64,000 nt of DNA from a virus (lineage: Duplodnaviria; Caudoviricetes): IMG/VR virus record IMGVR_UViG_3300038673_000220, positions 64,001 through 128,000 of that record. One strand, 5' to 3'. Below, in pieces: positions 13,686-63,412 of this stretch (within the stretch, counting starts at the first letter, position 1; each line of letters opens with the position of its first letter). The notes beneath the pieces were generated by a model. The model was not told where the DNA came from, searched no databases, and saw only the letters and a list, made by a program, of their open reading frames with translations. Both the position numbers and the translations under genes were made by a program.

Positions 13686-15729
13686 ATGCAGAAATGTTTT
13701 GTATTACCGAGTATCATTAACTTAGATGATCTCTTTAGTCGGACACCAAATACAACGGTGTTTAATGAGATCATGCTTGAATGTCAATCAAGCGAAGTTG
13801 TTGATATACTTTGTGATATTTCCAATGATAAAACTGATTCAGTAGCCTCATGTGAATGCGGTTGCCTTAAAGGAAATTATTACACTGGAACGAAATGTCG
13901 GGTATGTAATACTGTTTGCGAATCGAATCTCTTTGGTGAGATACGGAATGATTCGTGGTTAGCTATACCAAACTCTATCAAAGGAGTTTTGAATCCACAA
14001 GTTTTCAGAATCTTGGAAAGCTGGATGGGAAATACTACAGGTCATCAACCTATCATACGACAAATCCTCGATATGCAATTACCAGTAGAACCTATACCGA
14101 ATACGCCATTTTATTCTGGTATGGGATTTAATTGGTTTTATGATAATTTCAACGCTGTTATAACGTACTTTTTGACAAGCCATCCAACAGATACTGGTAG
14201 AAAAGCTGCTCCGAGTATAGAGCTCTTTCTGAAACAAGCTGGAGAAGCTATCTGGTGTCATTATTTACCAATATTAAGTAAGATCATCCAACCTATTACT
14301 CGTGTGAATAAAGATGTTCGTTATGCTGATACGGACATCAAGAATCTCATGAAGTCGATATTCACTTTAAGGAGCATCCTTTTAGCTGAAAAGACCATGA
14401 AGTTTTCTTATGATCACATCGATCGAAACTTCTTCAATGTGTATATTGAGTTCATCAATTACACGAAAAATATCTTGTATTCGAAGCTGCCAAGAAAACA
14501 GAGCATACTGAGGAAACATGTCTTTGGATCACGATCGCATTGTTCAGGACGAACTGTTGCGATCCCAATCGTTGAACCTCATGAGTCAGATAATATCCAT
14601 CTTCCTTGGCGATTAGGATTGATGATGTATCGTTATCACGTATTGGCAGTTTTGGTCAAGAAGTTTAGAATACCACCACTTAAAGCGTTTAATCGTGTTG
14701 TCAATGCTATCAACGTGTACGATTATGAGATCGATCGTATTATGCAGGAGTTGATCGCTGATTGTCCGTATAAAGGATTCCCTCTACTTGTGAATCGAAA
14801 TCCGTCATTGAAAATAGCGAGTATCCAATTATTATTCGCAACGAAGATCAAACCTGCATTAACTGAGAATCCGGTCAATTTACCAAATATTGAAGATATT
14901 AATGTCTCAGTGTTTGATCAGGATGATGAAGGATTCAGTAAGAGCTCATCGATCTTGGACATCAATGATGAAGATCAAATCGATCCAAAACTGAAGTATC
15001 TATTACGAAGCTATGTTGAAGATGATACAATAGCTGTTTCACCACTGATCGTTAAAGGTCCCAATCTTGACTTAACACATAAGGTCCGCTATGAAGTAAT
15101 TCATAGATGAAAATCTCTCTAATTGCTGGAACCTACTAAAGCTGTCTCACTACAACGTGACTCGAAAGGGTGAGCGTGAATGTTTGAAAACGAGACGGAT
15201 ATATGGGGAACCGTGGATTCTAAGAATCCCTTTAGCAGCCAAGATCCTAAAGTTATTGGGTATTGATTAATTGAATGAAGATACTCAGGTGGATTAGTTA
15301 ACCAATAAATAAGGATAAGGTCCAACGACTATGTGATTAATGGGTAATTCAATAACAATGTATCTATGGGTTATTGAGTCTACATACGCGCCATTAAGTA
15401 TACAGTACTTACCAAGTGGGTAGGGAAATGGGAGACTGCCTCAGGAGATGAGGTAGAAGAGATAGTCTGGACATCTAGGGAAAACCTAGAGCTGCAGGTA
15501 ATGCTGCGGGGATCAACTAACGACTGATCCTGAACATAACGTTGATGGGGACGAGATCAATATCATTCCGTTGTATGAGATGGATGAAGTCAAAGAGTTT
15601 GAGCGTCTTTATCCAGCTCACCGTTTCATTTCTGATAACGATCTCAAAATCGATGGTGGAGATGTTGTCATTTCTTCTCAACAGATTTGTATGCTGGCCT
15701 CATGGATGAATGATCCTGAATACAGCTAA
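13686..15729 (+). CDS. non-virion RNAP beta' N-terminal subunit (phiKZ gp55-like), spliced: join(13686..15072,15542..15729)
   Basis: Zn motif CECG...CRVC; LRKHVFGSR and NRNPSL; splicing restores the catalytic NLDFDGDE (GAC T|TT GAT GGG GAC); exon 2 is open to the TAA at 15727-15729. Confidence 0.92.
15073..15541 (+). mobile_element. group I intron (IA-like, no homing endonuclease), 469 nt
   Basis: 5' exon ends in U and can pair with IGS GGUC (U.G wobble); P element AATTGCTGGAA, R element GTCCAACGACTA, S element AAGAGATAGTCT; P3 TCTCTC/GGGAGA; terminal G; removal restores DFDGD. Confidence 0.93.
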
Positions 15730-15731
15730 AT

Positions 15732-15774
15732 ATCAAGTGGTAGGCATAACAACCTACCACTTGATTTATTTTTT
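15732..15774 (+). terminator. intrinsic terminator
   Basis: 13-bp stem atcaagtggtagg/cctaccacttgat plus T-run, right after the exon 2 stop. Confidence 0.9.
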
Positions 15775-15776
15775 AA

Positions 15777-15795
15777 ATATATATTATACTAGGAG
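15777..15795 (+). promoter_or_regulatory. early-type promoter
   Basis: ATATATATTAT-ACTAGG-A. Confidence 0.65.
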
Positions 15796-16337
15796 TTGTA
15801 GAAAAATAAAACACCTAGTTATTATATAAAGAAAAGAGCTTTCCATAATGAATCGTAGCGTTATCAATTGGGTACATTGCAAAACGGCGGGGCATTCTGG
15901 GAAGCTTGGATTTAATAGTTACGACACACGATTGATTTACTCTATTAAATCACGTTATCACCTACTCATTAAACGATTATTTGCCGAAATCGCATCGACC
16001 AATGAATGTCGATGTTCATAGTCCATTGCCAATTAAATTCCACTATTGGCGCATAAATCGACTGATTTCTTATTGTTGATCAGATTGTGTGGTAATGATT
16101 GAGCATCTTAGAAAGTCGTAATAACAGATGACTCTTTGAACGAATTTGTACTGGACAAGTGCTCTGACAAATTCAAATCGTTATGACACCGTATGTTGAA
16201 ACTTCGGAGACGGTATGAACCTTCGGGAAATATCAACATTTCATATCGATAACCCGGTTTGAAATCCAGATAGAGTCGGGATTTATTATCAATCAATTCT
16301 ACTGATCCTGAATAATCGGGATCAGTGGTAAATTTTT
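15795..16337 (+). ncRNA. candidate structured non-coding RNA of unknown family
   Basis: bounded by promoter and terminator; no RBS-supported ORF; about ten consecutive stems and two cUUCGg motifs. Confidence 0.55.
16301..16337 (+). terminator. intrinsic terminator
   Basis: actgatcctga/tcgggatcagt stem followed by aattttt. Confidence 0.75.
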
Positions 16338-16353
16338 ATCGAGGGTAAATTTC

Positions 16354-16865
16354 GTGTTTAAGATAATAATAAGTAAGAATACTGGATTAACATGTGTTGA
16401 GATAAATCAACCATCACAGGAGGTGTATGATAAAATCATAAAGATATGTCATTCATACGATGTATCTGACGAGAAAATAAGTATAATAAATCGTGGTGTC
16501 GCGAGTTTTTTCAAAGTAAAAAAGAAGGAGGGTATGATTGGATACTTATAGCGTTTTGGAGTGAGGATGTAGCAAAAGCTTTCTTAGATGTTGTATCAAG
16601 CGAGATAAGCGATTTAAGTATTGATGAAGATAATTCTAAGCTTTATTCATTGTCATATAATCAAGTTATGACTATATCGAAGGAATTGTCAAAGATATTC
16701 GGAATAGATGAATCGAGGATGGATTATGAACTTCTCAGATCCATAACTTGCGTAAATAAAGATAATGATTCATCTATCAAAATGATCCAAGAATCCAAAA
16801 ATTCCAAAACTTTCAATAAATGCTTATTCTGTAATAATAAATGTAATAAGAGTAAGTGTCCTTAA
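16354..16865 (+). CDS. hypothetical protein split by a -1 frameshift (about 170 aa if joined)
   Basis: the frame-0 ORF 16354-16551 overlaps a -1 frame that is open from 16470 to 16865; slippery T_TTT_TTC and A_AAA_AAG lie in the overlap. Confidence 0.55.
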
Positions 16866-16883
16866 AATCTAGGGTATAAAATT

Positions 16884-17663
16884 ATGCTACAATTCATTTG
16901 TAAAAAAGACGACGAGGTAGGACTTTATATTCAAGTTAATCACACGAATCATCTTGATAAGTTATTCGTAAGAAAATTCGCTTTGGATGGATTCTCAAAC
17001 ATCCTATCCGAAGAAGAGAATGCAAAATCAGTTGAACAAGTGAATAGCGTATTCTCTTTAATGAGCGAAGCTGAACAGGATTATATATTCAAGCTGTATG
17101 ATGAAATCAATATCACTCTTCTTCAAAATTATCGGCAGGATGAGATCAAAGATACATTGAATTCTATAGGGAATCGTATATTAAAAGATATCGAACGAAT
17201 GAAATTGGTCGATTACTGTAATCAACACCCTTTTAATAAATTCCCTATCCAAATCAACAGTATTAAGATAAACTTCGTTTCATTGATTCTTATCATAGGA
17301 ATATTTCTACCGGTTTTAATCATGGTGAAATCTTTCAATAAACGATATGTTAAGAATCAGACAATGAATTCGTTGGCAGTCAATCGTGTTCTGAAACCAA
17401 CCATTGATACATATTTCAGTAAAGAAAGGATGTTTATCAAAAACCTTATCATCGATGCGATCAAAAATGATTATCCTGAAGCTAAGGATATTATTATCAT
17501 CGATAAGAAATTCAAAAACATTTGCACTTTTAGTGAAATCATTCTGTGTAATATCATTTCAGATATATTCACTAAAGCACCTTGTAACAATGAAGTAGTA
17601 TTTGAAAGCATCAACCAATTCTTCATAGCTTATATTCGGAATTATATCCGAGAAAATAAGTAA
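16884..17663 (+). CDS. hypothetical protein
   Basis: 259-aa ORF. Confidence 0.7.
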   Translation: MLQFICKKDDEVGLYIQVNHTNHLDKLFVRKFALDGFSNILSEEENAKSVEQVNSVFSLMSEAEQDYIFKLYDEINITLLQNYRQDEIKDTLNSIGNRILKDIERMKLVDYCNQHPFNKFPIQINSIKINFVSLILIIGIFLPVLIMVKSFNKRYVKNQTMNSLAVNRVLKPTIDTYFSKERMFIKNLIIDAIKNDYPEAKDIIIIDKKFKNICTFSEIILCNIISDIFTKAPCNNEVVFESINQFFIAYIRNYIRENK

Positions 17664-17719
17664 ATACATAACCGAACAATGATTTAGATATTAATATCAA
17701 AAATCAAAGGAGATCTTTC

Positions 17720-18331
17720 ATGATGGGTTCAGTTATGCCAGCTATAACTCTAAATGCTTGTCCAGGTTTGTCAAGTTTTATAGGAACAGCTGGTACAGAC
17801 GCATTGTTAGCTGATATAAATCGAGATCTGAATAACAGTCAGTTCTTTGGATCTGTAGATGATATCATGTCTGTTGGGAGGCAGATGTTTATTGATAATA
17901 ACATTGTACCGATAAGGGCTATTGAAAATAGCGTTAAGAATCTTGTTGGTATGTTTGAGTATAACGATGTTTATCGAGAGATAACGTCTGAAGAAGATCT
18001 TCAAAGCATTCCTTCTTGTATGCATGATAGCATACTTCGATACAAACCTATCAAGAAGCTTTTTGATGAAGCTCGTATCTTTGGATTCGGATGGGACTAT
18101 GTTCCTGAAGAAGATTGTTATGGTCGGTTAATCAAAAATGGTTTTGTTGAAGATGTTGAAGCTATTATGGATGATAAAGGTGAATTCGAGTTGGAATACA
18201 CTTTCCAATCAGATGATCCAGATTTATCATTCGAAGAACTTGAATGCATCAAGGTGACTAGAGATTATCTTGATTACATCCTCAACGAGACAGACATCGA
18301 TCCAACCGATTACGGAAATAGAAGGTCATAA
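17720..18331 (+). CDS. conserved chimallivirus hypothetical protein (phiKZ gp61-like by synteny)
   Basis: GGAG RBS; acidic; C-terminal DPT motif. Confidence 0.6.
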   Translation: MMGSVMPAITLNACPGLSSFIGTAGTDALLADINRDLNNSQFFGSVDDIMSVGRQMFIDNNIVPIRAIENSVKNLVGMFEYNDVYREITSEEDLQSIPSCMHDSILRYKPIKKLFDEARIFGFGWDYVPEEDCYGRLIKNGFVEDVEAIMDDKGEFELEYTFQSDDPDLSFEELECIKVTRDYLDYILNETDIDPTDYGNRRS

Positions 18332-18339
18332 AAGATACT

Positions 18340-18381
18340 CCATGAGCTGTTATTATTAACAGCTCATGGGACAATATTTTT
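18340..18381 (+). terminator. intrinsic terminator
   Basis: ccatgagctgtta/taacagctcatgg stem, with a T-run 7 nt downstream. Confidence 0.75.
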
Positions 18382-18394
18382 TCGGGAGCAAGAA

Positions 18395-18796
18395 ATGAGT
18401 ACTCCAGTAATACCTACGTTAATGAGTGATATCTCCATGTTAAAACATCCTGTTGATATCATCAAATACGTATTACGTTGGTATATGTATGTTCCTAAGA
18501 ACATCAACGATTCATTAAATGAACAAGAGATATCGTTTCGATATACAGATGCTAAAGTCGGTCATGATCGAGGTATGTTGGCAAATGCTTCGAAAGGTGA
18601 TATCGAAAAAGTTCTAAAAAGGTATTTCCCAAATGGTACTATCGATGTAGCAGTTGCTACATCCGATTATGATACAGTAAGATATGACATAACGTTCGAT
18701 ATCGTTATTGTTAACGAAGGTAAATCTTATTCAATCAGTAGAAGTTTTCGTGTTGATTCTGATGGTTATCTTGTTTATAACTTTGATGGAGAATGA
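18395..18796 (+). CDS. small conserved protein, possibly T4 gp25-like baseplate wedge fold
   Basis: 133 aa; helix followed by RYFP..V.V...Y.I.F.I.I beta pattern. Confidence 0.45.
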   Translation: MSTPVIPTLMSDISMLKHPVDIIKYVLRWYMYVPKNINDSLNEQEISFRYTDAKVGHDRGMLANASKGDIEKVLKRYFPNGTIDVAVATSDYDTVRYDITFDIVIVNEGKSYSISRSFRVDSDGYLVYNFDGE

Positions 18797-20697
18797 TCAT
18801 GGACGATGTCCAGATAACTATAAAAAAGCTCATCGATGAACTTACTGAACATAAGCGTCGGTATTACGACCTTAATGAACCAATCATCTCAGATATTGAA
18901 TACGACGCATTGCATCAGCTCTTTGTCGATTATCAAAAGAAGTATCCAGAAATAGTTGAAGAGATAGGTTGGAAACCTTTTGGTAAAGTTGTTACTCACA
19001 AACACAAGATGCTTTCATTAGAGAGCACTCAAGATCTTTTAGTTGTATTAGGAACATTCATTCACCACAAATGGTTGATTTCATGTGAACCAAAGATCGA
19101 TGGATTGTCATTGGAATTGGTTTATAATGATAAGAACTTAGTATCAGCATCTACTCGTGGTGATGGGAATGAAGGTGAAGATGTTACAGCCAACATTCGA
19201 TTCGTTGAGAGTATTCCGAAGACGATTTCAAACGATGCTTGTATATATGGTGAAATTTATTTGAATAGAGCGGATTTCACTAATATAAACAAAGATCGAA
19301 TGGCTCGAGGAAAATCTCTTTATACGAATTTAAGGAATGCAGCTGCTGGTATTCTGAGATCTTCTGATACAACGAGATACCTCCATTTACTCCAGTTCTT
19401 TCCATACACTGTCAAAGATCATAATCTTGATAGTCAATCTTCAAGCTTTACATGGTTAAAGCTTAATGGTTTCAACACGTTGGATGATTATACTCTCTTA
19501 GCTAAGTATATTTCAGATATCGAAGATTATCATGACCATATGACTGAAATAAGAGAAAAGCTTCCATTTGAGATCGATGGTTTGGTTTTCAAAATAGATG
19601 ATTTCGATCTTCAAGAGAAGATAGGAATGGCATTTACCCATCCAAAATGGGCTATCGCTTTTAAGTTCAAACCAGACCGAGTTTATACTCGGTTGAACGA
19701 TGTTGTATTCCAAGTAGGTAAATCTGGTATCATTGCGCCAGTTGGATTACTTAATCCTGTTCGCATACGTGGAAGCTTAGTTGGAAGAGCTTCTTTGTCA
19801 AATGAATCAACGATAAAGAAAAAAGATATCAGGATAGGTGATATCGTAGCTCTTGAAATGGCTAACGATGTTATCCCTTATATTGCTGAACCATCTATGG
19901 ATGATCGAACTGGTAAAGAAGAAGTGATCGTCTTTCCAAAAGAATGTCCAGAATGCCATCATCCTGTAAGTAAGAATGGTGTTCATTACGTTTGTACGAA
20001 TTATCAATGTCCAGCTCAGGTTATTGGTAAATTGATCAACGCTGTTAAACGAGAAGGGTTCAATATCAAAGGTCTTGGTTATGAAACCATGAACAAGCTA
20101 ATAACGCATGGTTTAATCAAGAACATTGAAGATATTTTCAAATTGGATGATCCTGAGAAGATCTCCATAATGTCCCAATTAAACATTGGTGACAAAGTGA
20201 TTAAAAATCTAATTAACGAGATAAAACGTAAGGTGTGTATACCTATACGTAAGTTCATTTTCGCATTAGGAATACCCAACGTGAGTGTTGCGACATCAGC
20301 TAAATTGGCTGAGTATTTTCATGATGTTAAGCATCTTGTGAAAATGCAACCTTACAATTCAAAAGCCGTTTTATCTAATATCAACTCTGAGACGATTGAA
20401 GCGATCGAAGCTTTTCTGAGAAATTCAGAAAATATAGATATGATCAATCGTATGGTGTATTATATTCGAATAGAACCAGATGATACACCAACATATTCAA
20501 TGAATGTTGCTATTACTGGAAAATTCAACAGACCTAGAAATGAAATAAAGGATCAGTTGAATTCAAAGAATATCAATGTTACGAGTAAGGTGAACAAATC
20601 AACAAGCTATCTTTTATGTGGTGAAAATCCAAGTGAATCTAAGATAACTACTGCAAAAAACCTCAACATTCCGATCGTTGGAATCGACTTCTTTTAG
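18793..20697 (+). CDS. ligA: NAD-dependent DNA ligase
   Basis: YY...P.ISD.EYD, MLSL, adenylation motif EPKIDG, TRGDG..GEDVT, RNAAAG, EIDGLVFK, WAIAFKF, Zn finger CPEC..C....CP, C-terminal BRCT. Confidence 0.97.
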   Translation: MIMDDVQITIKKLIDELTEHKRRYYDLNEPIISDIEYDALHQLFVDYQKKYPEIVEEIGWKPFGKVVTHKHKMLSLESTQDLLVVLGTFIHHKWLISCEPKIDGLSLELVYNDKNLVSASTRGDGNEGEDVTANIRFVESIPKTISNDACIYGEIYLNRADFTNINKDRMARGKSLYTNLRNAAAGILRSSDTTRYLHLLQFFPYTVKDHNLDSQSSSFTWLKLNGFNTLDDYTLLAKYISDIEDYHDHMTEIREKLPFEIDGLVFKIDDFDLQEKIGMAFTHPKWAIAFKFKPDRVYTRLNDVVFQVGKSGIIAPVGLLNPVRIRGSLVGRASLSNESTIKKKDIRIGDIVALEMANDVIPYIAEPSMDDRTGKEEVIVFPKECPECHHPVSKNGVHYVCTNYQCPAQVIGKLINAVKREGFNIKGLGYETMNKLITHGLIKNIEDIFKLDDPEKISIMSQLNIGDKVIKNLINEIKRKVCIPIRKFIFALGIPNVSVATSAKLAEYFHDVKHLVKMQPYNSKAVLSNINSETIEAIEAFLRNSENIDMINRMVYYIRIEPDDTPTYSMNVAITGKFNRPRNEIKDQLNSKNINVTSKVNKSTSYLLCGENPSESKITTAKNLNIPIVGIDFF

Positions 20698-20708
20698 AGG
20701 GAAAGAAA

Positions 20709-20933
20709 ATGTTGAATGATTATGGAAAAAAACTCTTAAAGTTGGGTACTCCAAAAGATTCATTAGAACATGTTGACCCTACTTTAAAGATAACAGAAGG
20801 TATCCCAAATCAATATGACAAAGATACTGGTGGAAACGCTGGGGACTCATTTGAGTTCCCACTATCCGATAAAGAACAGGATCAAATCAATCGTTTACTT
20901 GACCCTATATTCCAATTGAAGGTGGGATCATGA
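20709..20933 (+). CDS. hypothetical protein
   Basis: GAGGG RBS; ATGA overlap with the next ORF. Confidence 0.6.
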   Translation: MLNDYGKKLLKLGTPKDSLEHVDPTLKITEGIPNQYDKDTGGNAGDSFEFPLSDKEQDQINRLLDPIFQLKVGS

Positions 20934-21187
20934 AACACGACCTCATACCTGACATTGTAAATACTGAACGTATCCGGATTGATGAAATCGAACGCGAAGA
21001 ACTTGTATTTGGTGAAGATGATATTATTCGAATAGATGATAGTAAACGAGAAGAACTTACATTCGATAAAAGCGATATCATCGATCTTCACAATTTACAA
21101 AAAAGAAAACGAACCTATAAAAAAGATCCAAATAAGAAGAATAAGAAAAAGATAACTCAATCTTCCAGGAAAAAGAATAGGAGATGA
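20930..21187 (+). CDS. small protein with a duplicated acidic motif and a very basic C-terminal tail
   Basis: IRIDxxxREELxF occurs twice; K/R-rich tail. Confidence 0.65.
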   Translation: MKHDLIPDIVNTERIRIDEIEREELVFGEDDIIRIDDSKREELTFDKSDIIDLHNLQKRKRTYKKDPNKKNKKKITQSSRKKNRR

Positions 21188-21188
21188 A

Positions 21189-21752
21189 ATGGACGCCTTT
21201 AACGAAAAAGAGATGCGTGATATCGATCAATTGCATTCTGAGTTGATGAAAATCGAAGATACTCAGAATAATGTCGATATATCCGAATTCAATTACTATT
21301 CACCGTTATTCAGAAAAGCTGATAACCTTTCTAAAGAAAAGATCAGAGAGCTTTCTGACCAATTCTTTCGAAGATTCAACGTCTATAAACCCATTGTTGT
21401 TTTTCAAGAAGGTGAAGAGATTTTTCGAGTACCCCAACTCTTTATTGAAATCAACGATGTTTCTAAAGAACATACGAATCTCGTTGACAACTTCAGAACG
21501 CATGGAGTATCTGATGTCCCGAAGTATGCTCAGGAAGCAACCTATGGTTTATTAGCAGCTATCCTAAAATCCCAAGAAGATGTGAGTGAAAAAGGCTTCA
21601 AATCGTATGGTGAATACATCAATCATCTTTCAAATGAGTATCGTAGAGATGTTGAGGCTTTCACTCAGGTGAAGGATAACGTACCTGTAGAAAAACAAAG
21701 ATCTCACAAAGATATTGATATTAATGACATTGACGGACTTGTCTGGAAATGA
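21189..21752 (+). CDS. conserved hypothetical protein (phiKZ gp64-like by synteny)
   Basis: AGGAG RBS; FRVPQL motif; directly upstream of the SbcD-like gene. Confidence 0.6.
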   Translation: MDAFNEKEMRDIDQLHSELMKIEDTQNNVDISEFNYYSPLFRKADNLSKEKIRELSDQFFRRFNVYKPIVVFQEGEEIFRVPQLFIEINDVSKEHTNLVDNFRTHGVSDVPKYAQEATYGLLAAILKSQEDVSEKGFKSYGEYINHLSNEYRRDVEAFTQVKDNVPVEKQRSHKDIDINDIDGLVWK

Positions 21753-22855: not shown

Positions 22856-22863
22856 GGTTTATT

Positions 22864-23700: not shown

Positions 23701-23766
23701 TATTTTTTTACAAGAAAGTCCTATCATATAGGATAAAAATCAACTCTTAAGGAGATTAAAAAGGCT

Positions 23767-24348: not shown

Positions 24349-24414
24349 TAAACTGCTAAGGAGCTTTGGAATGAAATTAGTCTTAGCTATGCAGTCGGAC
24401 AAATAAACAACTTT

Positions 24415-24448: not shown

Positions 24449-24451
24449 CAT

Positions 24452-27206: not shown

Positions 27207-27213
27207 TCTTTAA

Positions 27214-34600: not shown

Positions 34601-34643
34601 AAGGTGGGGTTAAAAGCCCCATCTTCTTAAAAAGGAGAAATGT

Positions 34644-36581
34644 GTGGACACTCTAGATCTTAAAAATGTTGATATGATTGCTGTGATCGACGACCTGATC
34701 TATTATAAAGGTAAGATCCTTGTCATATTCGACAACGGTGAAAAAGTAGAACTTCCTGTTCGTAAGCTGATATTCCATCTGATGTTTTGGGCTATCGGGA
34801 GGAAATGGAATATCACAATAACTCCAGCATTTATAGTTGATACAAGTTTTATTTATGATTCAACGATAAGTGAAATCGGGTCAAGGCTTTTTGATGCTAT
34901 TCAAGCTGTTACAGAAGGATCTTGTTATAATTTTGTTTATGACATGAATGACGCTGTCAATTATTTGAATAAATTCATTACTATCAATTGTCAGGAATAT
35001 CATCAAACGATGACTATTGTCGATTTAGCCAGGATTGCTTATATACCTGGTATAAAAGCAATAACCGACGATAGAGTTTGCGATATCAAAGTTTCTATTC
35101 AACAAGCGAATGAGTATATCAAAAAGAATTTCAGTTTACTATTTGATGAGCTTAAGAAACCCTATCCTGGAAATAAACTCCACAACTTCGTTAATCTAAG
35201 ATTCGTTAAAGCAACTGCATTGGCGCATATCTTTTATCAAATCGGATTTCGTACAGACATTGATGATAATACAATCAGGTATCCAATCCAAGGAAATTAT
35301 TTGGATGGATTAAGAAACACTGTTGAGTATTGTCTTGAATCTCTATCGGCTAAGAAAGCTATGTTTTATAATAGAGATTCTTTACCAACGGCTGAATATT
35401 TTGCTCGAAAGCAGCATATCTTATCAAGTTGTATACAACACCTGTATAAAGGAGATTGTGGATCAACAGTTACTCTTCCGTTTTACATCACTGAAAATCT
35501 TGCAAACGTTGTTCTTTATAAGAACATCGTTGAAGGAAAGAATATCATCACTCTAACTCCAAATAATATCAAACATTATATTGGTAAGATCGTCCAATGT
35601 AGAACACCAATCGGATGTAAATACACTGATGGTGTTTGTGAAGCTTGTGCTGGAAAACTCATATCAAACATCTCGCCAAATACTCACATCGGTATGTTTG
35701 CAGCCATTCGAGTTGCTTCAGTTATCACTCAGGTTATCTTAAGTTCTAAGCATGTTCAAGAAACATCTATTGTTGAGTATGCTATTCCTGAAGATCTTAA
35801 GGTATACATGATGAAGCACCAAGGTGGTATTTATGTCAAACCAAAGATCAGAGAAAAATTCAAAAAGATCACAATGATCTTTAAGATGAATGATACTATG
35901 CAATTAAGAGAATTAGGTTCTCTTAATATAGCACGGTTGAGTACAATCAACGAATCATCTTTCGGTAAATGTAAGGAAGTTGTTTTAATGCGTGGTAATA
36001 ATCTTATCACTGAAGAAGTTGGATTAGGATCAAATGATCAATACCCTTTATATTCTCGAGAGCTAATCAGATATATTGCAGCTCATCAGGATCTTATCAC
36101 GATCAAAGATGATATGTTTATGATCTCTTTACGAGAATTCGACTTTAAAGATCCTATCTTTAAATTGGTCGTCATGAATAACTCGATGGTTAAATTCGTT
36201 AACAACGCAAAGAAGCTGGTTGAAAGTGAAATCAAAAAATACACTTCAGCAACCGAGCTTGTGAACAGTTTCTCGAATCTTGTTTATGGCCAAGTAAAGG
36301 TTAACCTAGCGTATTTAGAAATCGTTGTTCGAGCAGCGTTGATCACTGATAAAAACGATTATAGAATACCTGTGATTGAAGATATCGATGACGTTATGTT
36401 TACAACGAATCCGTCAGCGAATATGCTAAGGTCTGTTGGTATATTGTGCGCTTTTCAGCAATTACCAGCTTCGTTACGCAATCCAGCTCTTTACCTCATT
36501 CCAAGGACATTCACACCGTTTGATGAATTCCTCAATTTAAAGCCAAGGACAGCGGGATTTCTTTCTGTCAATAAGGCATAA
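34644..36581 (+). CDS. non-virion RNAP beta' C-terminal subunit (phiKZ gp74-like)
   Basis: bridge-helix AEYFARK, GDCGS, C...GVCEACAG and trigger-loop-like TQVILSSKH; GTG start with AAGGAG RBS. Confidence 0.92.
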   Translation: MDTLDLKNVDMIAVIDDLIYYKGKILVIFDNGEKVELPVRKLIFHLMFWAIGRKWNITITPAFIVDTSFIYDSTISEIGSRLFDAIQAVTEGSCYNFVYDMNDAVNYLNKFITINCQEYHQTMTIVDLARIAYIPGIKAITDDRVCDIKVSIQQANEYIKKNFSLLFDELKKPYPGNKLHNFVNLRFVKATALAHIFYQIGFRTDIDDNTIRYPIQGNYLDGLRNTVEYCLESLSAKKAMFYNRDSLPTAEYFARKQHILSSCIQHLYKGDCGSTVTLPFYITENLANVVLYKNIVEGKNIITLTPNNIKHYIGKIVQCRTPIGCKYTDGVCEACAGKLISNISPNTHIGMFAAIRVASVITQVILSSKHVQETSIVEYAIPEDLKVYMMKHQGGIYVKPKIREKFKKITMIFKMNDTMQLRELGSLNIARLSTINESSFGKCKEVVLMRGNNLITEEVGLGSNDQYPLYSRELIRYIAAHQDLITIKDDMFMISLREFDFKDPIFKLVVMNNSMVKFVNNAKKLVESEIKKYTSATELVNSFSNLVYGQVKVNLAYLEIVVRAALITDKNDYRIPVIEDIDDVMFTTNPSANMLRSVGILCAFQQLPASLRNPALYLIPRTFTPFDEFLNLKPRTAGFLSVNKA

Positions 36582-55600: not shown

Positions 55601-57039
55601 TGACCATCAGTAGTGGAAAAGGTGATCCTGGTGGCGTAAGTTATGGTAAATACCAATTATCAAGTAATGCTGGTACATTAAGTAAATACCTGAAGATGTC
55701 TGGATACTCTGATCAATTCAAAGGTCTATCTCCTGGGTCAGCTGCATTTAATGCTAAATGGAAAGAACTTGGTTCTAAGGATCCTAAATTCGCCGAATCT
55801 CAAAATCAATTCATTCATAAAACTCATTATGAACCAGCTTTTAAGAAAGCTCAAGAGTTAGGTTTTGATACGACAAATCGTGGTATCCAAGAAGCTATTT
55901 GGAGTGGTTCTATCCAACATGGTGGTATTAAAGAAATCTTACGAAGAACAGCTGCAGTACCTGGATTCGATAAAATGACTCCAGAACAACAAATAGCTGC
56001 ATTCTATCAACAACGTAGCGACTACGCTTCTTATTATATGCGTAAAAATGGAGCTTCTGAAGAACAAATCAAGAATGCTTCATATGGGCGTTATAAGAAA
56101 GAGATAAAAGATGTTATTGCACTATCTCAAGCTCAAAAGGATGATGTGACGAAACAAGAACCATCAATCCCGAGTCCTGTTGTTAATCAACCACAAATAG
56201 AAAATGATGCAATGAAAGATATCCAAGAAAAGGATATCAAAGCTGGATTACCTAAAACTGGAATCCCTGAGGTTGTTAAGAAAGCTACAGAGGAAACTAT
56301 CAGTAAAACTTCTGAACAACCTAAACCAGAGATACCTCAAGTTGTTAAAGAAGCTCCCAAACCTATCAATGTTACTCCATCTAAAACTGAAGGAGTTACT
56401 CAACCAGTTGTTAGTCAACCTCTACCTCCTAAAGTTATTTCAGCTGAAGCTGCTCCAAAAACAGTTACTGAACCGGCTAAATCTGAAAATCAAGTTAAAT
56501 CTGAAGCTGCTATAAAAGCTGCCTATACGAATTTCATGAGTGAGACTCCTGAAGAACGTAGAAGACGTGATGAGTTATTTAATCAGTATCGTAAGAATAT
56601 GTCTTCTTTAGATGCTGCTCGTTTATCGAGAGAAAATGCTCACAAAGAATTTGGAAAACCTGTACAACCAGCAGCTATTCCGAATCAAATAAATCCAGGT
56701 ACACCACAAACTCAACCGAATAGTGAAATAACTGTTAATGATCCTGAAGGTAAGAATCAGACGACATTACTTCAACAACAAAATGAACTCTTATCACAGA
56801 TAGCTTCACTGTTAGGTGGAAGTGGTAAGAAAGAATCTAAAGAAAAACCTGTTGAATCTGGCGTAACAGATAATAGTGCTGTTGTTACCAAACTTGATGA
56901 GGTCATAAGTGCTATTCAAGCTAATGCTTCAAAGGCTGTTGGAGAAACAATTCCTCAGCAGACTGGTACATCCTTAACGAGGAATGTTGAAGTTCCTTCA
57001 AATAAAGGATTAAGTGTTGGTCGACAATCTATTCAATGA
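49672..57039 (+). CDS. giant tail-associated lysin/tape-measure-like protein (phiKZ gp181-like)
   Basis: 2455 aa; SIELKFK, FDELTRRSVIDIIP and DVY motifs; tail-lysozyme domain GIAANIHAES..YGLAQW; second hydrolase YESG...GDPGGVSYGKYQL; adjacent to vRNAP genes. Confidence 0.85.
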   Translation: MATQDNEGFDLPNLESKLNEPEPIINPDPSDQISNEDKPVYVKKSKKRDTFKKLEASKLTIDQISNEVKKAFDIKITNTDPSDISALLDNNKRRALYQADISQTVTSERNLYKLWIPKVKNILPLDLYGTKSISDAAIDGPTRLIIKTLERQRKLSVDQFVRNQARDIINERFQLNAHKDNLSFLSHVVANTKKTSSFLDTFVKKYMMTSIELKFKHIFVSQDILKHTKLMIETLSSKLDSVKHNTALSDVAKISAFAEFKRTLRIKANTMLADAALAQIKGPVTKLINDIVTRTKDAAVDKYQRYTGNSPIEFSGDVDEKLSDKTKRLARKVKGDIGYTDRSFLSPNMSKITDIENQTLVSKSLSSVLDIIKDNKEAKGIRTLGDKTNKKATFDELTRRSVIDIIPSLLAKIHQQVTKSSNILLFNTKRDLYNYNTDDLDAEINANEIRFDKTAEKFVNDKDLGDKLIEDTFGDRAERGQIIQPIVNKFYKGFVEHGGDKAAFERALPSIVTFITNISKHAKIVKLDHIKKYLNGADLTAFEKAYLDSIFVDIPQDLRKDVAAILTQSFFKDIDKNEIDTAISDDIGKQLRDIIKLRQSEIEKLTEFGRQGDLRNSDIVDKETGQLKHDIIRKKYANVDIEGIRSNLSTEEATEQSSLKEEMAQKVNDIKNRTSRTIRRVRKRFRGDEGLEPPPIPTRDQIQISGPGVYTQGSKEEFHIPLDKISDKIRVGIINLIGKSRIKRTKGTDEIIDLDEKDGVYQQRERINLKDKLKETKDKLPIDTIKQTIQDTLSDIGEKTKTQYDDIKGSDIDGKIRRIVRQILNNKGKAKTDEYESRVEFKGEPWRPRSQSQRYEKPTEESKDDKVLDFLKDQFETNNIIQESQLQALNAIIGKLDILGSGSSEEKEKRAKSFRSLFNPINFGKKAVGVGLKAGGLYLKGVGKFYKGLFNLSGKALKTSAGLARGGFGLGKGALGILGNIIPGIANFYGGVYKNIFKGMFATGKGVFNLGKKLFRSSNKYADVYRKDEVELGKPLLKGIDIKNGKYAYLNGGILKDSLSITEPIIDTETNQVIISEEDLEHGLVDYKNKPLKSKNLLGKIFKGIGTVAKVGVKGYGMVLKGYYSMMKTMLSGIFSFIPGIGKFFGKKKKDDPGVLDTVNVKELITNHLVKITELLQPISAHYGFIREGSYDDYKRDREAEKGSKRKRIRDIVKEKGQSRVDSVKEAAKKGGGLLGLVGAALGFGGDGDGEGGSSALGTATTLGAGGYALKKTKDVIGGIFGKKAATEGAEAAAKTTAKAAVKKGLLRKALGKVGGSKGAILAALATSLGANFLGGDDEAPKTKMGMAGDVATDIATFTAADKAKDLLLPKVLKKGGETGAQQLAKQGILRSGLTALGRFGFMQAARTAVVSGATAIAGAVSAPAVLAGLAIAGLTTGGYVAWNWSKNKDRRKSITKIRNSVYKVPEDKLNVVIDLENDLSKAMNDNKKSDLVSSKLKEYIEDFGLDPDDKRQFIFFKHWYSTIFFPVFKASYDIIEQSFKIKFIDQEKLSDDQLNEYKQSIENNGIFQSLKENQFELSSKGFRLWEKEEFFKDGEYVDSNKKHQELEDHLKKTTDLIKDNSAISKVSFEDMQKKNEAKINDAWDGYGMVGVMPEFNLPTESPSKVINEISDTERSTEEYADLSKDKSSGLVFKSNGKVNRRKTWKNVEKRIIEQMVKLGWSKAQAIGIAANIHAESSGDMTAVGDSGATYGLAQWHPPRQRLFKAKFKKDIRQATFDEQLAFIDYELRNGNALERKAGRLLKKAGSPSEAASAFTYWYERPRDKEEQAQIRSAFAASIARNYKELNEEDIRSDEDMTPEQIEAFEKSKYESDTETVNVNGIPVKIPSGGGSTLRATGSGASSPWDNFGEPSIIPSDNIPQTPSRSSVTSPNNIGKSTKGSKESDKLTDLTPSEGISATAGLGESVAKYESGKKGVMTISSGKGDPGGVSYGKYQLSSNAGTLSKYLKMSGYSDQFKGLSPGSAAFNAKWKELGSKDPKFAESQNQFIHKTHYEPAFKKAQELGFDTTNRGIQEAIWSGSIQHGGIKEILRRTAAVPGFDKMTPEQQIAAFYQQRSDYASYYMRKNGASEEQIKNASYGRYKKEIKDVIALSQAQKDDVTKQEPSIPSPVVNQPQIENDAMKDIQEKDIKAGLPKTGIPEVVKKATEETISKTSEQPKPEIPQVVKEAPKPINVTPSKTEGVTQPVVSQPLPPKVISAEAAPKTVTEPAKSENQVKSEAAIKAAYTNFMSETPEERRRRDELFNQYRKNMSSLDAARLSRENAHKEFGKPVQPAAIPNQINPGTPQTQPNSEITVNDPEGKNQTTLLQQQNELLSQIASLLGGSGKKESKEKPVESGVTDNSAVVTKLDEVISAIQANASKAVGETIPQQTGTSLTRNVEVPSNKGLSVGRQSIQ

Positions 57040-57042
57040 AAA

Positions 57043-57077
57043 AGAGAGATACGGTACTCTAAAGTACCGTATCTCTT
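57043..57077 (+). terminator. hairpin, probable terminator
   Basis: agagatacggtact/agtaccgtatctct. Confidence 0.75.
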
Positions 57078-57148
57078 AATCCATATTTATCAATCTGAGC
57101 AATATTATGATCTTAACAGGTATTTTTCCTTTTATATAGGGAGTTTTT

Positions 57149-58921
57149 ATGGCTGACGAAAAAGAATACGTTGAAGCAAAAGAGAATAGATTCATCTCAA
57201 GGGTTTCAATGGGTGATTCGTTTGAAACAAACGAAGCTATCATACGACATACATTAGATGATACATTAACAAAAGCTGCAGCTGCTGAAATCATTGCAGC
57301 ATTGCCAAGTTACTCAGTTAAAGCTAAGAAACGTGATACTCAAGTCGGTGGTAATGAGGCAATCAACTGTTACTACCAATTCAATGAGAGTGATGATATC
57401 GTTCATACTATTAATAAAGTTGGTATGACTGATGATGCTGGTATGGGTCGTGTTTATAATGAAACATTTGATCAACAGCAACAAATCCTCTATATGACTT
57501 TCGGTGTTCCTGATTTTACAAATGCGGCTAATTTTGTAAGCACCTTATATGACCAAAACTTAGCTACATTGATGAATACAGGTGACGCTAGTGTTTTAAA
57601 TAAGGTTGGTCAATTCATAGGATACGCTATCGGAACAGCATTGACGATACCCATAACCGGACCAATCAAGATCGTATCGAAGATCTTAGCTGAGCCGTCT
57701 CCATCTAAGTATTACGACATCTTACCAACGATGCCTTTGTATTATAAAACAGTTAATGTCATATTAGCTCATCTAGCATCAAATATGAATCTCATCCCTG
57801 GAGAAGATGGTGGAAGTACTGAAGGTGTTCCAAACATTCTCAAGACTCATGGATTAGATATACTAACGATACTGTCTCGTAAATATTTTTATGATCAGAT
57901 AGCTGAATCATCTGCTCCAACTACTGATGAACTAATGAAAACGCTTTCTGGTGATAAAGATTATGAGAAAAATATTTGGGAAAAAGGTAAGGATGGTATT
58001 TCGGCAGCTGTTACAGAAGCTTTATTGCATGTGGGTTTCCGGGTTGAGAAATCGTCAGATAGTTCTGAATCAGCTTCAAATGCTACAAAAGAACCTGAGA
58101 TACTAAGTAAGTTAAATGCTGAAGTTTCTGCTGGTAGAGAACGTACATTTAATCTCGGTGCAATTCGTGAAACTGGAGCTGGCCAAGTGCTTGATAGTCT
58201 TTATCAATCATTGATGGGATTTGCTCAAGGTATGGCTGAATCTATAAATGTTCATGGTGGAGCTGAGATACTAAAAGGTTCGGGTTTCGTCGATATGCCT
58301 GAAATTTATGCATCAAGTTCTTTCAGTAAGAGTTATTCATTTAACTTCCAGTTGAGAACTCCTTACGGTGATCCATATTCGATTTTTTATTCATTGTATA
58401 TCCCATTAGCTATGCTCTTAGCAGCAGCCTTTCCAAGATCCGTTGGTCAAAATACCTATACTTCACCATTCCTTGTACGAGCTTACTGTCAAGGTATGTT
58501 CGCTATTCCGATGGGTATCATTGATAGTATCCATATCCAACGCGGTGCTGCTGAATACGGTTGGAATGACGATATGCTCCCAACTCAGATCGATGTTTCC
58601 TTTACGATCAAAGATCTTTCGCCTATTATGCATATTGCTATCGCTGATGGTGGTGTCAAAGATTGGATGGGTATCCTCGGTGAGAATTCATCTTTTCAGG
58701 AATACATGTTAACATTAGGTGGAGCTAATGTTGCTCAGCGTATCCTTAAACTTCAACAGATCAAGAATCGTACGAAAGCGTTGTTGAAGATTTTATCAAA
58801 TAACAAGCTCAACCCGATGATGATGGGATTTTCAATAATGAATACGAAGGTTGGACGAATGATAACGAAACTTAATCCTGTGAGTCGTGTTCCAGGTGCA
58901 GTTACTAATCCTGAAGGTTGA
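57149..58921 (+). CDS. tail/baseplate protein (phiKZ gp182-like)
   Basis: GGNEAIN...QF...DI, GMGRVY.E, LRTPYG and YTSPF motifs; follows the gp181-like gene. Confidence 0.75.
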   Translation: MADEKEYVEAKENRFISRVSMGDSFETNEAIIRHTLDDTLTKAAAAEIIAALPSYSVKAKKRDTQVGGNEAINCYYQFNESDDIVHTINKVGMTDDAGMGRVYNETFDQQQQILYMTFGVPDFTNAANFVSTLYDQNLATLMNTGDASVLNKVGQFIGYAIGTALTIPITGPIKIVSKILAEPSPSKYYDILPTMPLYYKTVNVILAHLASNMNLIPGEDGGSTEGVPNILKTHGLDILTILSRKYFYDQIAESSAPTTDELMKTLSGDKDYEKNIWEKGKDGISAAVTEALLHVGFRVEKSSDSSESASNATKEPEILSKLNAEVSAGRERTFNLGAIRETGAGQVLDSLYQSLMGFAQGMAESINVHGGAEILKGSGFVDMPEIYASSSFSKSYSFNFQLRTPYGDPYSIFYSLYIPLAMLLAAAFPRSVGQNTYTSPFLVRAYCQGMFAIPMGIIDSIHIQRGAAEYGWNDDMLPTQIDVSFTIKDLSPIMHIAIADGGVKDWMGILGENSSFQEYMLTLGGANVAQRILKLQQIKNRTKALLKILSNNKLNPMMMGFSIMNTKVGRMITKLNPVSRVPGAVTNPEG

Positions 58922-58932
58922 TTGGAGAAGCC

Positions 58933-61900
58933 ATGAATGAAATAAGCTTAGAGTATCTTATTAGTGATTTTTCGATCTTTGAAAAAGCTAACATGATACG
59001 TAGGGTATCTGATATACACAATAAAGAAGTTAATGCTCAGGATCTTGTATTACCTAAGAATCCAATGCTTCACATCTTGGATAATTTTGACCACAGTCAT
59101 CAAAGTACAGATGATTTTGATATCAACAAATATCCGTTTTTAAATAACCGGACAAACATCAAATACTTGCATAACTTTATCCAGTTTGATGATATCGATA
59201 AATCCTTTTTGGACAAATTCGGACATCGTCTATATCGTTCTAAACTTGTTGAAAACGTAAGAGCTTTCAGTTTATCTCATCGGAAAGAACTGATCCCACT
59301 AATAAAACTTGACACTGTTGTCAGTAATAAGAACTGTGTCTTGGTTGAAAACTATAATCCAATTTACAGGATCATTGCGACAAATCAACGTCCTATCAAT
59401 CAATATTACAGGTATCAAGCTATTTTTTCAACAGTGCTTCAGAATACGTTGAAATACGATCGACAGCATTTCTTGGTTATACCTGTTGATGACGATTTGA
59501 ATATCAAACGATCTAACATCGTAGCTTTAGCTCAAGCTGAAGAAATGTCACCTCAGCGACTTGTTAACACGAGCCATTTCTATTTCTTCATGTTAGACTT
59601 AGCTATTCTTTTATTGAATAATGAGTCAAAGCTTACGACTTTCAGCACATTAGCTTTAAGAGATATCAGTAGGCTTAATATCATTTTGATAAAGAATGGT
59701 AAATGTATCATATTCAATATCGGCAAACTAGCCTCATTGATAACAAGTAATACCTATGTTTTTGATTTCATCAAGACAATAATGAGATTTTCTTCAACTA
59801 GCCAAGAGATCGTAATTGATGATACAGACGAATCAGAAATCGATGAAACTCCAGTTGTTCAATCAATCATACCTCAATTGAAAAAGAGTTTCGATGTAGG
59901 GAAACCGTCGATCATCAAAACACTTATAGAGAAAGAGGTTGTTACTGAAACTGAAATAGATAGTTTTGAAGAAGAGCCTGTCCAAAAGGAAGCTCGATCT
60001 AAAAATTATCTTTTACCTAAAACATTGGACACGAAGATTATCTCTTCGATTCCTTTTTCAGATAAGCAAAAAACTCGTATAGAAACATTAGCTGATAAAT
60101 ACAAGTCCATCAAAGTAAAAACTGAATCAGGTGAGCGAACTATTGAAGAAATACTCAATGAGAGCGTTGATATAAACATTCAATCAGAACAGTTGAATGT
60201 TTCTCATAATGGTGAAGTTTCTGAAGATATGCTCGCTTCATCAACTATAGTCTTTGATAACAAATACCGTAATCAACTTCTTCATAAAGATATCTTGAAT
60301 AACGTTGTCTGTTTTCAGGAGAACGGTTTATTCTTAACGAAGTATGATGAGAAAAATGAATACAATGAATTCACTCGAGTCAAGCATGTTAAAGTTGGAT
60401 TTACAGATATCAGAGGAAAGCAACATACGATAAGCTTCAAATTACCGATGCCTGATGATGAAGGTTATTTCCTTGTTAATGGTGTTCGGTTGAGTATGTC
60501 GAAGCAATTAGTGAATGTTCCTATATGTAAGATATCTCCAACTCGAGTTTCTCTTATCTCCAACTACAACAAGACGCTCGTTGATAAAGTACAATCTGTA
60601 CGATATTCAATAGATGCTTTTTTAGCTAAGAAAGCTGATAAACTTGGAATAACACTTGTTCCAAAACTTAATACCTATGTTGGTATCAACCTTCCATACG
60701 AATATAAGCTTTTCGGTAAATCATATGCGAAGATCCTAACTGATACATACACCTTTTATTTTGAGTACGAGAACCGATTCAAATTCTTCAATAACGAAGC
60801 TCTTAAAGAAGCTGAAAATGAATACGGAGTGGTTGTCGGAAAACTCAATGAGGGTAATAATCAGTATGTGTTTATGAATAAGCTGGGTATACTATCAGGG
60901 GTCGACTTAAACAGCTTTAATCAACTAAAAATTCCTAAGCACATCGTGGATTGTTTTGGCGATTTTCAAGTTCCACCAGAATGGTGCGATCTTAAGATCT
61001 TGGATAAAAACATACCGATCGGATTCATCCTGAGTTATAGATACGGACTCTCAAAAGTATTAACGAATCTGAAGATCCAACACACCTTCATATCAAAAGC
61101 TTCTGGTGAAAAACCTCAACCTTCTAATACGGATATCGTTATGCAGTTTGCTGATGGATGGTTAGTCATCAATCGGTATCCATTGATTCATAGTTACATC
61201 ATTTCTGGATTATCATCATTTTCAACACTTTCGAATTATCAATTCATCGATCTTGATGGTAAAGATGCTTATTATGGTTTGATATCCGAAAAAGGTATGA
61301 GTATGAACTACCTTAAAGGTATCGATAACTATTTTAGTTTCTTTATTGATCCTATTACGAAAGATGTTCTTCAAGAGATGGGTGAACCAACCAACACGAG
61401 AGATCTTTTGATCAGATCTGTTGAACTCCTGATCAATGAGAATGATAAAGCTCCAAGTTCCATAACGAACTTCAGATTACGATCGTCCGAAAAGATCCCA
61501 TCGATGATCTATAATGAAATAGCTCGTCAATATGCTAACTATGTGAATAGTGAATTTAAGGATGTAAGTTTCAGTATCAATACTGAAGCTATCTTTCAGA
61601 GATTGATTCAAGATGAAACTATGAATCTTCGAGAGGATATCAATCCTATTCATTCTATCAAAGAAAATAGTCGAGTAACTCACGCTGGATTTGGTGGTCG
61701 ATCTTCACAAGCTTTCGTATCACGAGATCGAAAATACGCTCAAGATGCTATCGGTATCATATCAGAAGCTACAACGGATAGTGGAAGCGTTGGTATGGTA
61801 GCATCACTGTCTGGTAATCCAAGTATCAAAAACGTTCGAGGTATGTTCGATACAAACTCTGACTTGAATACAACTAATATATTAAGCGATGTTGGATTGT

Positions 61901-63412
61901 TGATGCCAAGCTCTTTGCACGATGATCAAAATAAGGTCCTACTAATCAGTAATGATTAGATAGTATTCTCTCTAACTGCTGGAACCTACTTAGAGCTGTC
62001 TCACTACAACGTGATCTGAAAAGATGAGCGTGAATGTCTGAAAACGAGACGGATTGGGGAACCGTGGATTCTAAGAATCCATTTAGCAGCGAAGATCCTA
62101 AGGCTATATAGCTATGGATAACGTTCAACGACTAACCTCTTATCAAGGTGTAGAGTTCGAGTGAACTCGAAATGGGAGACTACCTCGAATGAGGTAGAAG
62201 ATATAGTCTACTCTTTAGGGAAAACCTAAAGCTGCATTCAAATGCGGGTATCGATTAACGACCGATACTGAATATAAAAGGCCAAAAAGAGCGAATTTTA
62301 CCAACATCCAACTATCCCATCATGTACCAACTAAGAATCTCAAACCTTCTCGATTAAGAACTGGATATGAGATGGTTATTCCTTACAAAACGACTGATTT
62401 CTTCATAGCTAAAGCTAAACAGAATGGTGAGGTTGTTGGTATTGATGAAAAGCTCAAACTCATCAAAGTTCAATACAAAGATGGATCAACTGATGTATTT
62501 GAATATGGTGAAATACCTGGAGAATCTTCAGGTTCATTAGTTAATCATCATATTTCAGTTCATCCTAATGTCAAGATCGGAGCTAAGTTTAAGAAAGGTA
62601 ACATCATTACGTATCATGAAGATTTCTTTCAATTAGATCCGATAACGAATCAAATCTCTTGGTGTCATGGTATTCCAACAACCATGGCTGTTATGTCTAA
62701 GGACATTACTCTCGAAGATAGTAGTATGATATCAGCCGATCTTGCTAAAAAGCTTGATCTTGAAGTTATCAATTCTCGTGTCATTCAAGTCACGACAGAC
62801 ATGATCGTTGAAGATTTTTCTGATGTTGGAACCACTGTTAAATTCAACGACCCTTTAATCAAACTGAAATATGAAGATACTGCTGAAATCATCGGTGATG
62901 TTGATGAGCTCTTTTTAGATCTTCGTCAAGTTGAGTATCGAAGTAAGAATGAAGGTGAAGTTGTTGGTATTCAGATTTACTATGTAGCTGATAGCTTAAA
63001 TCAATCCTTAACGAAATTCGCTAATAAGATAACCTTTAATAAAAGAGCGAAGGCTCGATTAACAAAGGGTACACTTAAAGAAGAGCAATTCACTCCAGTG
63101 AATATCGTTCCAGAAGGAACTCGTGTCAAAGGTGTTCAATTATCAGCATCTGATGTACTGATCATTTTCCATATCAAATCTAATATAGGTTGTGGTATCG
63201 GCGACAAGATCGTTACAGGAAATATGCTGAAATCAGTTGTTGGTAAGATCGAACATAATCCAATGACTACTGAAGATGGTGAACCTATCGATATTGTTTT
63301 TGGTAGTATTAGTATCAATGACCGTATCGTTTTGAGTGTTTACATCAATGGTATCAGTGATCGTATTATTCAAAAAGCTGAAGAAGACATTGTTAATATG
63401 TACTTCGGATAA
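58933..63412 (+). CDS. virion RNAP beta subunit (phiKZ gp178-like), spliced: join(58933..61926,62282..63412)
   Basis: PICKISPTRVSLISNYNK, GFGGRS and SEATTDSG motifs; splicing restores HDD|PKRANFTNIQLSH (compare bacterial HDDANRALM); exon 2 has RLRTGYE, TLEDSS and GDK....LKSV. Confidence 0.92.
61927..62281 (+). mobile_element. group I intron (IA-like, no homing endonuclease), 355 nt
   Basis: exon GAU pairs with IGS GUC (U.G wobble); AACTGCTGGAA, GTTCAACGACTA and AAGATATAGTCT core elements; terminal G; in-frame exon junction. Confidence 0.93.

Follow-up and report, generated by a model that had tools for sequence, protein, structure and literature searches.

Sister group I introns without open reading frames at non-homologous sites in two RNA polymerase genes of a phage related to phiKZ

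How did two closely similar ribozymes come to interrupt the genes of two different RNA polymerases (RNAPs) in one uncultured giant phage, at sites that are not homologous? The question is raised by a 64,000-nucleotide (nt) stretch of viral DNA, here called the window, which comprises bases 64001-128000 of a 149-kb IMG/VR viral contig (IMGVR_UViG_3300038673_000220) estimated to be 54% complete. The DNA has a GC content of 35% and its RNAP proteins are less than 40% identical to those of any GenBank phage, with the best matches to the phiKZ-like (chimallivirus) jumbo phages of Pseudomonas, Klebsiella and Stenotrophomonas. Intron A (15073-15541) interrupts a gene for the non-virion RNAP beta' subunit and intron B (61927-62281) a gene for the virion RNAP beta subunit, both on the + strand. 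The best reading of the sequence comparisons is that one ribozyme lineage switched sites. As a whole account, we consider it probable that both elements are functional, self-splicing introns that lack an endonuclease and that became paralogues by a site switch in an ancestor of the phage.

Exon 1 of the gene carrying intron A (13686-15072, + strand) matched the profile phrog_2987 (E 6e-67) over positions 5-409 and ends with AAU CUU GAC U. Exon 2 (15542-15729, + strand) supplies 62 codons to the stop, covers profile positions 420-476 and has a terminator-like hairpin on its 3' side. The gene gave a tblastn match to phiKZ gp55 and its homologues carry PF00623, which identifies it as the N-part of the non-virion RNAP beta' subunit. 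Intron A is 469 nt long with a terminal G at 15541, and its splice sites read CUUGACU/UAAC and AUAACG/UUGAUGGG (a slash marks the junction); the exon target sequence around the GACU site is CUUGACUUUGAUGGG. Joining AAU CUU GAC U to UU GAU GGG GAC GAG gives the product PNLD-F-DGDEIN, whose DFDGD we take to be the Mg-binding NADFDGD motif of multisubunit RNAPs. Intron-less homologues such as P0004, which reads KGPNLDFDGDEINIIP without a gap, indicate that the insertion of intron A was exact.

Exon 1 of the gene carrying intron B (58918-61926, + strand) matched phrog_3148 (E 2e-153) and, by tblastn, PHIKZ178 and PhiPA3 gp211, and ends with CAC GAU GAU. Exon 2 (62282-63412, + strand) starts with CCA AAA AGA (PKRANF) and matched positions 1051-1420 of the profile (E 1e-82), so that the two exons abut at positions 1050/1051. 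The 355-nt intron B ends in a terminal G at 62281, its splice sites read GAUGAU/CAAA and AAAAGG/CCAAAAAG, and joining CAC GAU GAU to CCA AAA AGA gives LHDD/PKRANF. The ligated frames of both genes match those of intron-less homologues (PNLDFDGDEIN and LHDDPKRANF). The first, sequence-only reading of this DNA had placed introns without open reading frames (ORFs) at these coordinates with splicing after GACU and GAU, and both proposals held: excision restores both protein motifs, the Rfam group I model RF00028 matched both elements, and neither intron contains a stop-to-stop ORF longer than 69 amino acids (aa). Intron B scored 61.5 bits over 61903-62231, above the gathering score of 50, and intron A scored 48.4 bits (E 5e-11) over 15064-15491, just below that score and with large insertions in the alignment.

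Structural conservation was assessed with a hand-built structure over 14 family members. In this alignment 89.3% of cells were paired and 65 of the 87 pairs changed on both sides, a level of pairing and covariation reached by none of 500 shuffles, while slid controls were 37-45% paired. P3 and P7 were paired in 100% of cells across the 14 relatives. An extra hairpin of the type GGAUUC-UAA-GAAUCC lies between J5/4 and P4' in intron A (15215-15229, + strand) and at 62066-62080 in intron B, and its helix was also 100% paired with covariation. This hairpin beside P4' is common only to A, B and a few environmental introns (L021, L011, L025, L041 and L043b) and is absent from all members found in Pseudomonas and Serratia phages. 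In intron B and its relatives two covarying hairpins, P7.1 and P7.2, are found between GACUA (5' strand of P7) and GGGAGA (3' strand of P3); in intron A this region is enlarged (15332-15425, + strand) compared to about 45 nt in B. P7.1/P7.2 between P7 and P3' characterizes subgroup IA group I introns in the Michel and Westhof classification, and A and B are of the subgroup IA kind. Intron A also has a P6 stem extension (15258-15305, + strand) that is absent from B, the 46 nt of which fold as one long stem (z = -3.5). Taken together, the comparative evidence establishes both elements as group I introns with defined splice junctions and conserved structure.

Each intron would have to leave its pre-mRNA for a functional polymerase subunit to be made. 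Guanosine would attack after the U of the P1 U.G pair, exon ligation would follow after the terminal G, and excision would rebuild the DFDGD motif of the non-virion beta' subunit and the HDD-PKR motif of the virion beta subunit. RNAfold predicted a short P1 helix at both sites. In intron A, GACU/U pairs with AAGGUC over 5 base pairs (bp) with the U.G wobble on the first G, and in intron B, GAU/C pairs with GGUC over 4 bp with the wobble on the second G. The internal guide sequence (IGS) GGUC, at 15083-15086 and 61935-61938, lies in a 9-nt block, AUAAGGUCC, that is present in both introns (15079-15087 and 61931-61939, + strand), as the sequence-only reading had noted. The same IGS thus pairs at both sites in two registers, in agreement with the earlier claim that one guide serves two non-homologous sites, one in beta' and one in beta.

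Comparison of the two introns demonstrated a likeness stronger than the near-identical core of about 130 nt that had been proposed. Identity was 90.8% (129/142) from P3 to P6a, 81.8% (90/110) from P3' to the terminal G and 55% across the P1 loop, IGS and P2, while P6b to P7.2 could not be aligned because intron A has its expanded elements there. Differences between A and B were counted in the helices that align well (P2, P3, P4, P5, P5a, P5b, the extra hairpin, P6, P6a, P8, P9, P9.1 and P9.2). Of these differences 10 are double compensatory changes and 3 are single changes, and none breaks a pair. Three compensated changes fall in P2, adjoining the guide block, and the three compensatory sets pointed out earlier are real and lie in P5b, P9 and P9.2. 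Compensatory change without a broken pair, together with the family-wide pairing, indicates that both copies are under selection to fold.

We next placed both introns in a tree of 21 aligned family members. A and B were sisters with 98% ultrafast bootstrap (UFBoot) support on the whole alignment and 97% on the 3' part, a second build gave 99/96, and in the tree of the 5' part A and B fell together with L021 and L011. The next-best relatives of A and B were 82-83% identical in the 5' half and 74-78% in the 3' part; combined with the 99/96 branch, this indicates that the likeness of A and B exceeds family resemblance. Introns at the same site did not cluster. When all beta-site introns, or all DFDGD-site introns, were required to form a single clade, the approximately unbiased (AU) test rejected the grouping (p = 0.0004 in each case). 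The sequence-only reading would have been refuted had each intron been closer to same-site introns of other phages than to its twin and splicing been constitutive and complete; among the distant same-site introns that were compared, neither intron was closer to them than to its twin. We also considered a mosaic origin, in which the 3' parts were native to DFDGD-site and beta-site introns and the 5' half had been converted, and rejected it as both segments group A with B. By these comparisons the A-B pair is a clear case of a switch between two different subunits.

Switching of this kind was seen elsewhere in the family. The phiKZ gp56 and gp180 introns formed a cross-site pair with 90% support, and in a nearest-neighbour count over 54 introns, within-genome nearest neighbours recurred in phiKZ, PhiPA3, L061, L105 and L077. 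These cross-site pairs and recurrent within-genome neighbours indicate that site switching and spread within a genome are a habit of the family. A pair of cross-site sisters from different genomes was also observed with 100% support, namely the virion-beta intron of 201phi2-1 (L035, gp273/274) and the non-virion-beta intron in phiKZ gp71/73 (L029, gp72 region).

The family to which A and B belong colonizes essential genes of nucleus-forming (phiKZ-like) jumbo phages. RF00028 matches above threshold numbered three in phiKZ (gp55/56/56.1, gp71/72/73 and gp180/179) and four in PhiPA3 (gp209-211, gp065, the gp131/133/134 helicase and gp084/085). The exact site of B is occupied in PhiPA3, 201phi2-1, HPP-Temi (where the intron is also ORF-less), Serratia 2050HW and several environmental contigs, and the published PhiPA3 gp210 intron site, after two conserved Asp residues, is the site of B (Birkholz et al. 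2024, PMC11620839). In the DFDGD region of gp55-like genes three insertion registers were found: that of phiKZ, 7 nt upstream of A (N/A, guide GUUGGG), that of L026, 1 nt upstream of A (GAU/UUC, guide GUCC), and that of intron A itself (GACU/UU, guide GGUC). The virion beta' gene phiKZ gp180 carries a related intron at GAU/UUC of its own FDGD, again with the guide GUCC. Nearly all family members splice after a GAU Asp codon with a (G)GUCC-type guide, and where the exon reads AAU the guide covaries (GUUGGG in phiKZ gp56, GGUU in L039).

Among distant gp55-like genes in IMG/VR, many have family introns close to DFDGD, from a single one to three in tandem. The extreme was observed in three distant chimallivirus contigs (L096 6016-7130, L097 4653-5689 and L066 4819-6149), in each of which the 3' end of the gp55-like gene packs three tandem introns into about 1.1-1.3 kb, making the surroundings of DFDGD an extreme intron hotspot. 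Tandem introns were mutually nearest in L105 (83%), L077 (76%) and L061 (73%). The phage behind L021 has three family introns within 5 kb, two of them (L108 1071-1356 and 3627-3970) located 1.6-4.5 kb upstream of its beta-site intron.

A move from the beta site into the DFDGD site of beta' is the weakly favoured direction, since four beta-site introns were the nearest other rows to both A and B and the GGUCC guide of A and B is common to the beta-site introns L021 and HPP-Temi. Several observations weigh against this reading or against the sisterhood itself. The backbone of the intron tree is unresolved, which leaves the direction weak, and L026, from a DFDGD site, matches A and B in the 5' half just as closely as does L021, from a beta site. 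Sampling near the source phage is thin. Relatives at 50-70% protein identity have truncated gp55-like proteins ending in PNLD+L..., and probably carry an intron at or near the A site; if A grouped with the introns of those relatives and not with B, the sisterhood would need another explanation.

The age of the pair was addressed with two wastewater DNA runs (X3/X4), in which a relative of the phage has an exon 1 about 87% identical to the present one (194 of 1444 nt differ) and a gp55-like exon-1 protein (P0001) that is 97% identical; the contigs of this relative measure 16,799, 3,271 and 2,760 nt. One contig runs through the 5' splice site of A and has an additional AT following 15076, and loose ends from the relative include a B-type 5' end and a virion-beta exon 2, so the relative has both introns. 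Over 15116-15233 its intron A (A') differed from A at 3 of 118 positions, compared to 9 differences and 3 gaps for the B-type copy, the level seen between A and B. With both introns present and A' nearer to A than the B-type copy is, the duplication would predate the split of the two phages, and there is no sign of ongoing homogenization. One ribozyme lineage would thus have moved to the heterologous site in an ancestor, before the wastewater relative split off, and not within this genome as the sequence-only reading had it.

Where intron A has 159 nt from P6b to P7.2 (15259-15419), A' has 869 nt. This stretch may be an endonuclease gene, in a position that would be unusual for the family. Among more distant relatives the gp55-like proteins were of two kinds, either full-length and intron-less at 515-546 aa or truncated, ending in PNLD followed by read-through (such as LTSF or LHLN), which suggests patchy occupancy at or near the A site. 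The site is empty in a relative 49% identical to P0004, where the sequence is AAT TTA GAT TAT GAT GGG GAT.

Searches for further copies, donors and mobility genes were then made; those within the genome covered 149 kb, or about 54% of it. No third intron copy was found there beyond A and B, and neither HNH, HNH_3 and GIY-YIG domains nor a reverse transcriptase (RVT_1) gave a match, so that the free-standing endonucleases suggested for follow-up did not turn up with these profiles. Outside the genome, megablast of both RNAP genes against GenBank phages and single-protein scans of IMG/VR found no close relatives, and a clade-specific pattern (guide plus P3/P4) had no match in IMG/VR. A conserved P5 pattern, run in one metagenome scan and one IMG/VR scan, returned family members, none of which came closer to either twin than the twins are to one another, and the same was true of the introns in 58 gp55-like IMG/VR loci. 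Whole introns were searched with nhmmer profiles. No RNA run was listed as containing the phage, and two cDNA-labelled runs matched only the conserved intron cores of other organisms. In all, IMG/VR, JGI metagenomes and GenBank phages yielded no intron that resembled a closer donor.

How the switch came about can be weighed against these results. A homing cycle at the DNA level is possible though doubtful. An endonuclease-bearing copy would have cut or nicked the DFDGD region ectopically, illegitimate or microhomology repair would have copied the intron into it, and the endonuclease would later have been lost. I-HmuI-like HNH genes are carried by many family members (phiKZ gp56, gp72 and gp179, PhiPA3 gp210 and gp133, Serratia 2050HW_00101), occupancy of the A site is patchy among relatives, and both sites lie in highly conserved catalytic motifs, which are typical endonuclease targets (PMC12908238). 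The wastewater relative's intron A, about 0.7 kb longer than A, would fit such a cycle, but an endonuclease in the 869-nt stretch is itself presumed, and the endonuclease genes of known family members are positioned in the P1/P2 region and not in P6-P7.2. The two target sites also have no DNA likeness beyond GA(C)U, and exact insertion by illegitimate repair is rare.

A switch at the RNA level is unlikely. Here a free intron of the beta-site type would have reverse-spliced after GACU in the gp55-like transcript, and a reverse-transcribed copy would have entered the genome by recombination. One GGUC pairs with both GACU/ and GAU/C, and the 9-nt guide block is identical while the adjoining P2 has its three compensated changes; however, by our own estimate 9/9 identity is expected about one quarter of the time at about 15% divergence. 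A 4-nt guide match is non-specific, with GACT occurring 122 times on the + strand of the window, the guide type (GUCC-type with GAU/ targets) is family-wide, and any surviving intron must fulfil the guide match whatever its route. The insertion is nucleotide-exact with the exons unchanged, and the A site is 1 nt off the GAU/UUC used by L026 and phiKZ gp180, as expected of a U-requiring guide on a GAC Asp codon. The failure to find endonuclease domains in the 149 kb would suit this route, while the failure to find a reverse transcriptase there and the possible endonuclease gene in the relative's intron A speak against it, and the pathway is without direct experimental evidence in any system (PMC3984707). 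On the same grounds, the earlier claim of IGS-guided reverse splicing in place of homing is unsupported. A fuller version, in which the beta-site ribozyme moved after GACU with the help of long-lived untranslated pre-mRNA in the phage nucleus, seems improbable. If it were true, choice of site at the RNA level would lie behind the conserved (G)GUCC guide and the bias towards GAU Asp codons throughout the chimalliviruses, and reverse-splicing mobility would have its first example from a phage and from protein-coding genes, made testable by two short ORF-less ribozymes.

It is quite unlikely that no switch took place in the source lineage and that near-identical introns homed separately from co-infecting phages, or that gene conversion homogenized two residents. 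Both sites, or sites 1-7 nt away, are occupied in other phages, the likeness of A and B is patchy (91%, unalignable, 82%), and the P7.1/P7.2 of B resembles that of PhiPA3 (80%) while that of A does not. However, the 3' part evolves faster family-wide, so 91% against 82% is no mosaic signal, and the 5' and 3' segments both group A with B. The wastewater relative gives no indication of ongoing homogenization, its B-type copy being further from A than A' is, and the donor searches of IMG/VR, JGI metagenomes and GenBank phages produced no closer intron.

The proposal that the two introns act as a shared checkpoint co-gating both RNAPs, selected by nuclear uncoupling of transcription and translation, is very improbable. 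The only points for it are the need of both polymerases for a ribozyme from one family and the fact that these phages have to splice uncoupled from translation (PMC12908238). Against it, intron-less homologues of both genes are common among relatives, so that the introns are dispensable; patchy presence, conserved-site targeting and endonuclease-bearing relatives make the pattern of a selfish element; and RNAP genes with several introns are already usual in phiKZ and PhiPA3. Together these comparisons favour a site switch between sister introns, as the sequence-only reading had proposed, and do not favour its reverse splicing, its within-genome timing or its checkpoint.

Several other features were recorded in and around the window. 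The ORF at 57149-58921 was considered as the catalytic beta' part and ruled out because it lacks a D.DGD motif. Two ORFs in a split DNA polymerase (L107 2131-3359, corresponding to G000:C1 ~34630-35860, about 29 kb upstream of the window) were considered as an endonuclease cassette and rejected; they had no Pfam endonuclease domain at E <= 0.01, and the first gave weak P-loop/kinase-like matches only. Following the gp55-like gene, 1.15 kb (15730-16884) contains no ORF of at least 80 aa. This region has three terminator-like hairpins on the + strand (15732-15765, 16299-16328 and 16491-16504) where 0.5 are expected, is about 86-92% identical in the wastewater relative with indels of 1-2 nt, gave no Rfam match, and may hold small genes or non-coding RNAs. 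A stretch of about 300 nt in exon 2 of other virion RNAP beta genes (L038 6735-7042, also in L011 and L008), outside the query coverage, reads as an AT-rich coding insertion and not as an intron.

Group I introns in jumbo-phage RNAP genes are already established, and taken singly A and B are ordinary. The PhiPA3 gp209/gp210/gp211 intron shares with B its host gene, virion RNAP beta, and its exact insertion point, as do the same-site introns of 201phi2-1 (gp273/274), HPP-Temi and Serratia 2050HW. It is 70% identical over 78% of B and 80% identical in P7.1/P7.2. The PhiPA3 intron has an HNH endonuclease in its 5' region and B does not, the HPP-Temi intron being ORF-less like B, and the extra hairpin beside P4' in B is missing from the Pseudomonas-phage introns. 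The phiKZ gp55/gp56/gp56.1 and gp180/gp179 introns interrupt the same beta' motif (N-A/L-D-F-D-G-D) as A, with a second exon of 61-62 codons, the layout of phiKZ gp56.1 being like that of exon 2 of the A gene. Their 3' parts are 76-78% identical to A and, like A and B, they are within-genome look-alikes in two polymerases. Unlike A, they carry endonuclease genes and are inserted 7 nt (gp55) and 1 nt (gp180) upstream.

What A and B add is a clean example of two ORF-less ribozymes that are sisters and occupy non-homologous sites in different polymerases, set in a family where insertion site and intron phylogeny are uncoupled and look-alikes turn up repeatedly inside single genomes. The closest parallel comes from ribosomal DNA (rDNA), where related group I introns at heterologous sites are circumstantial evidence of spread by reverse splicing (Bhattacharya et al. 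2005, PMC1299323; PMC3984707). Like those introns, A and B are sister introns at non-homologous sites with a guide that fits both; unlike them, they have phage protein-coding genes as hosts, a guide match of 4 nt and a sister phage in which an endonuclease-bearing form may exist. The A-B pair thus lends circumstantial support to the idea that group I introns transpose ectopically in protein-coding genes, and is suited to in vitro reverse-splicing work.

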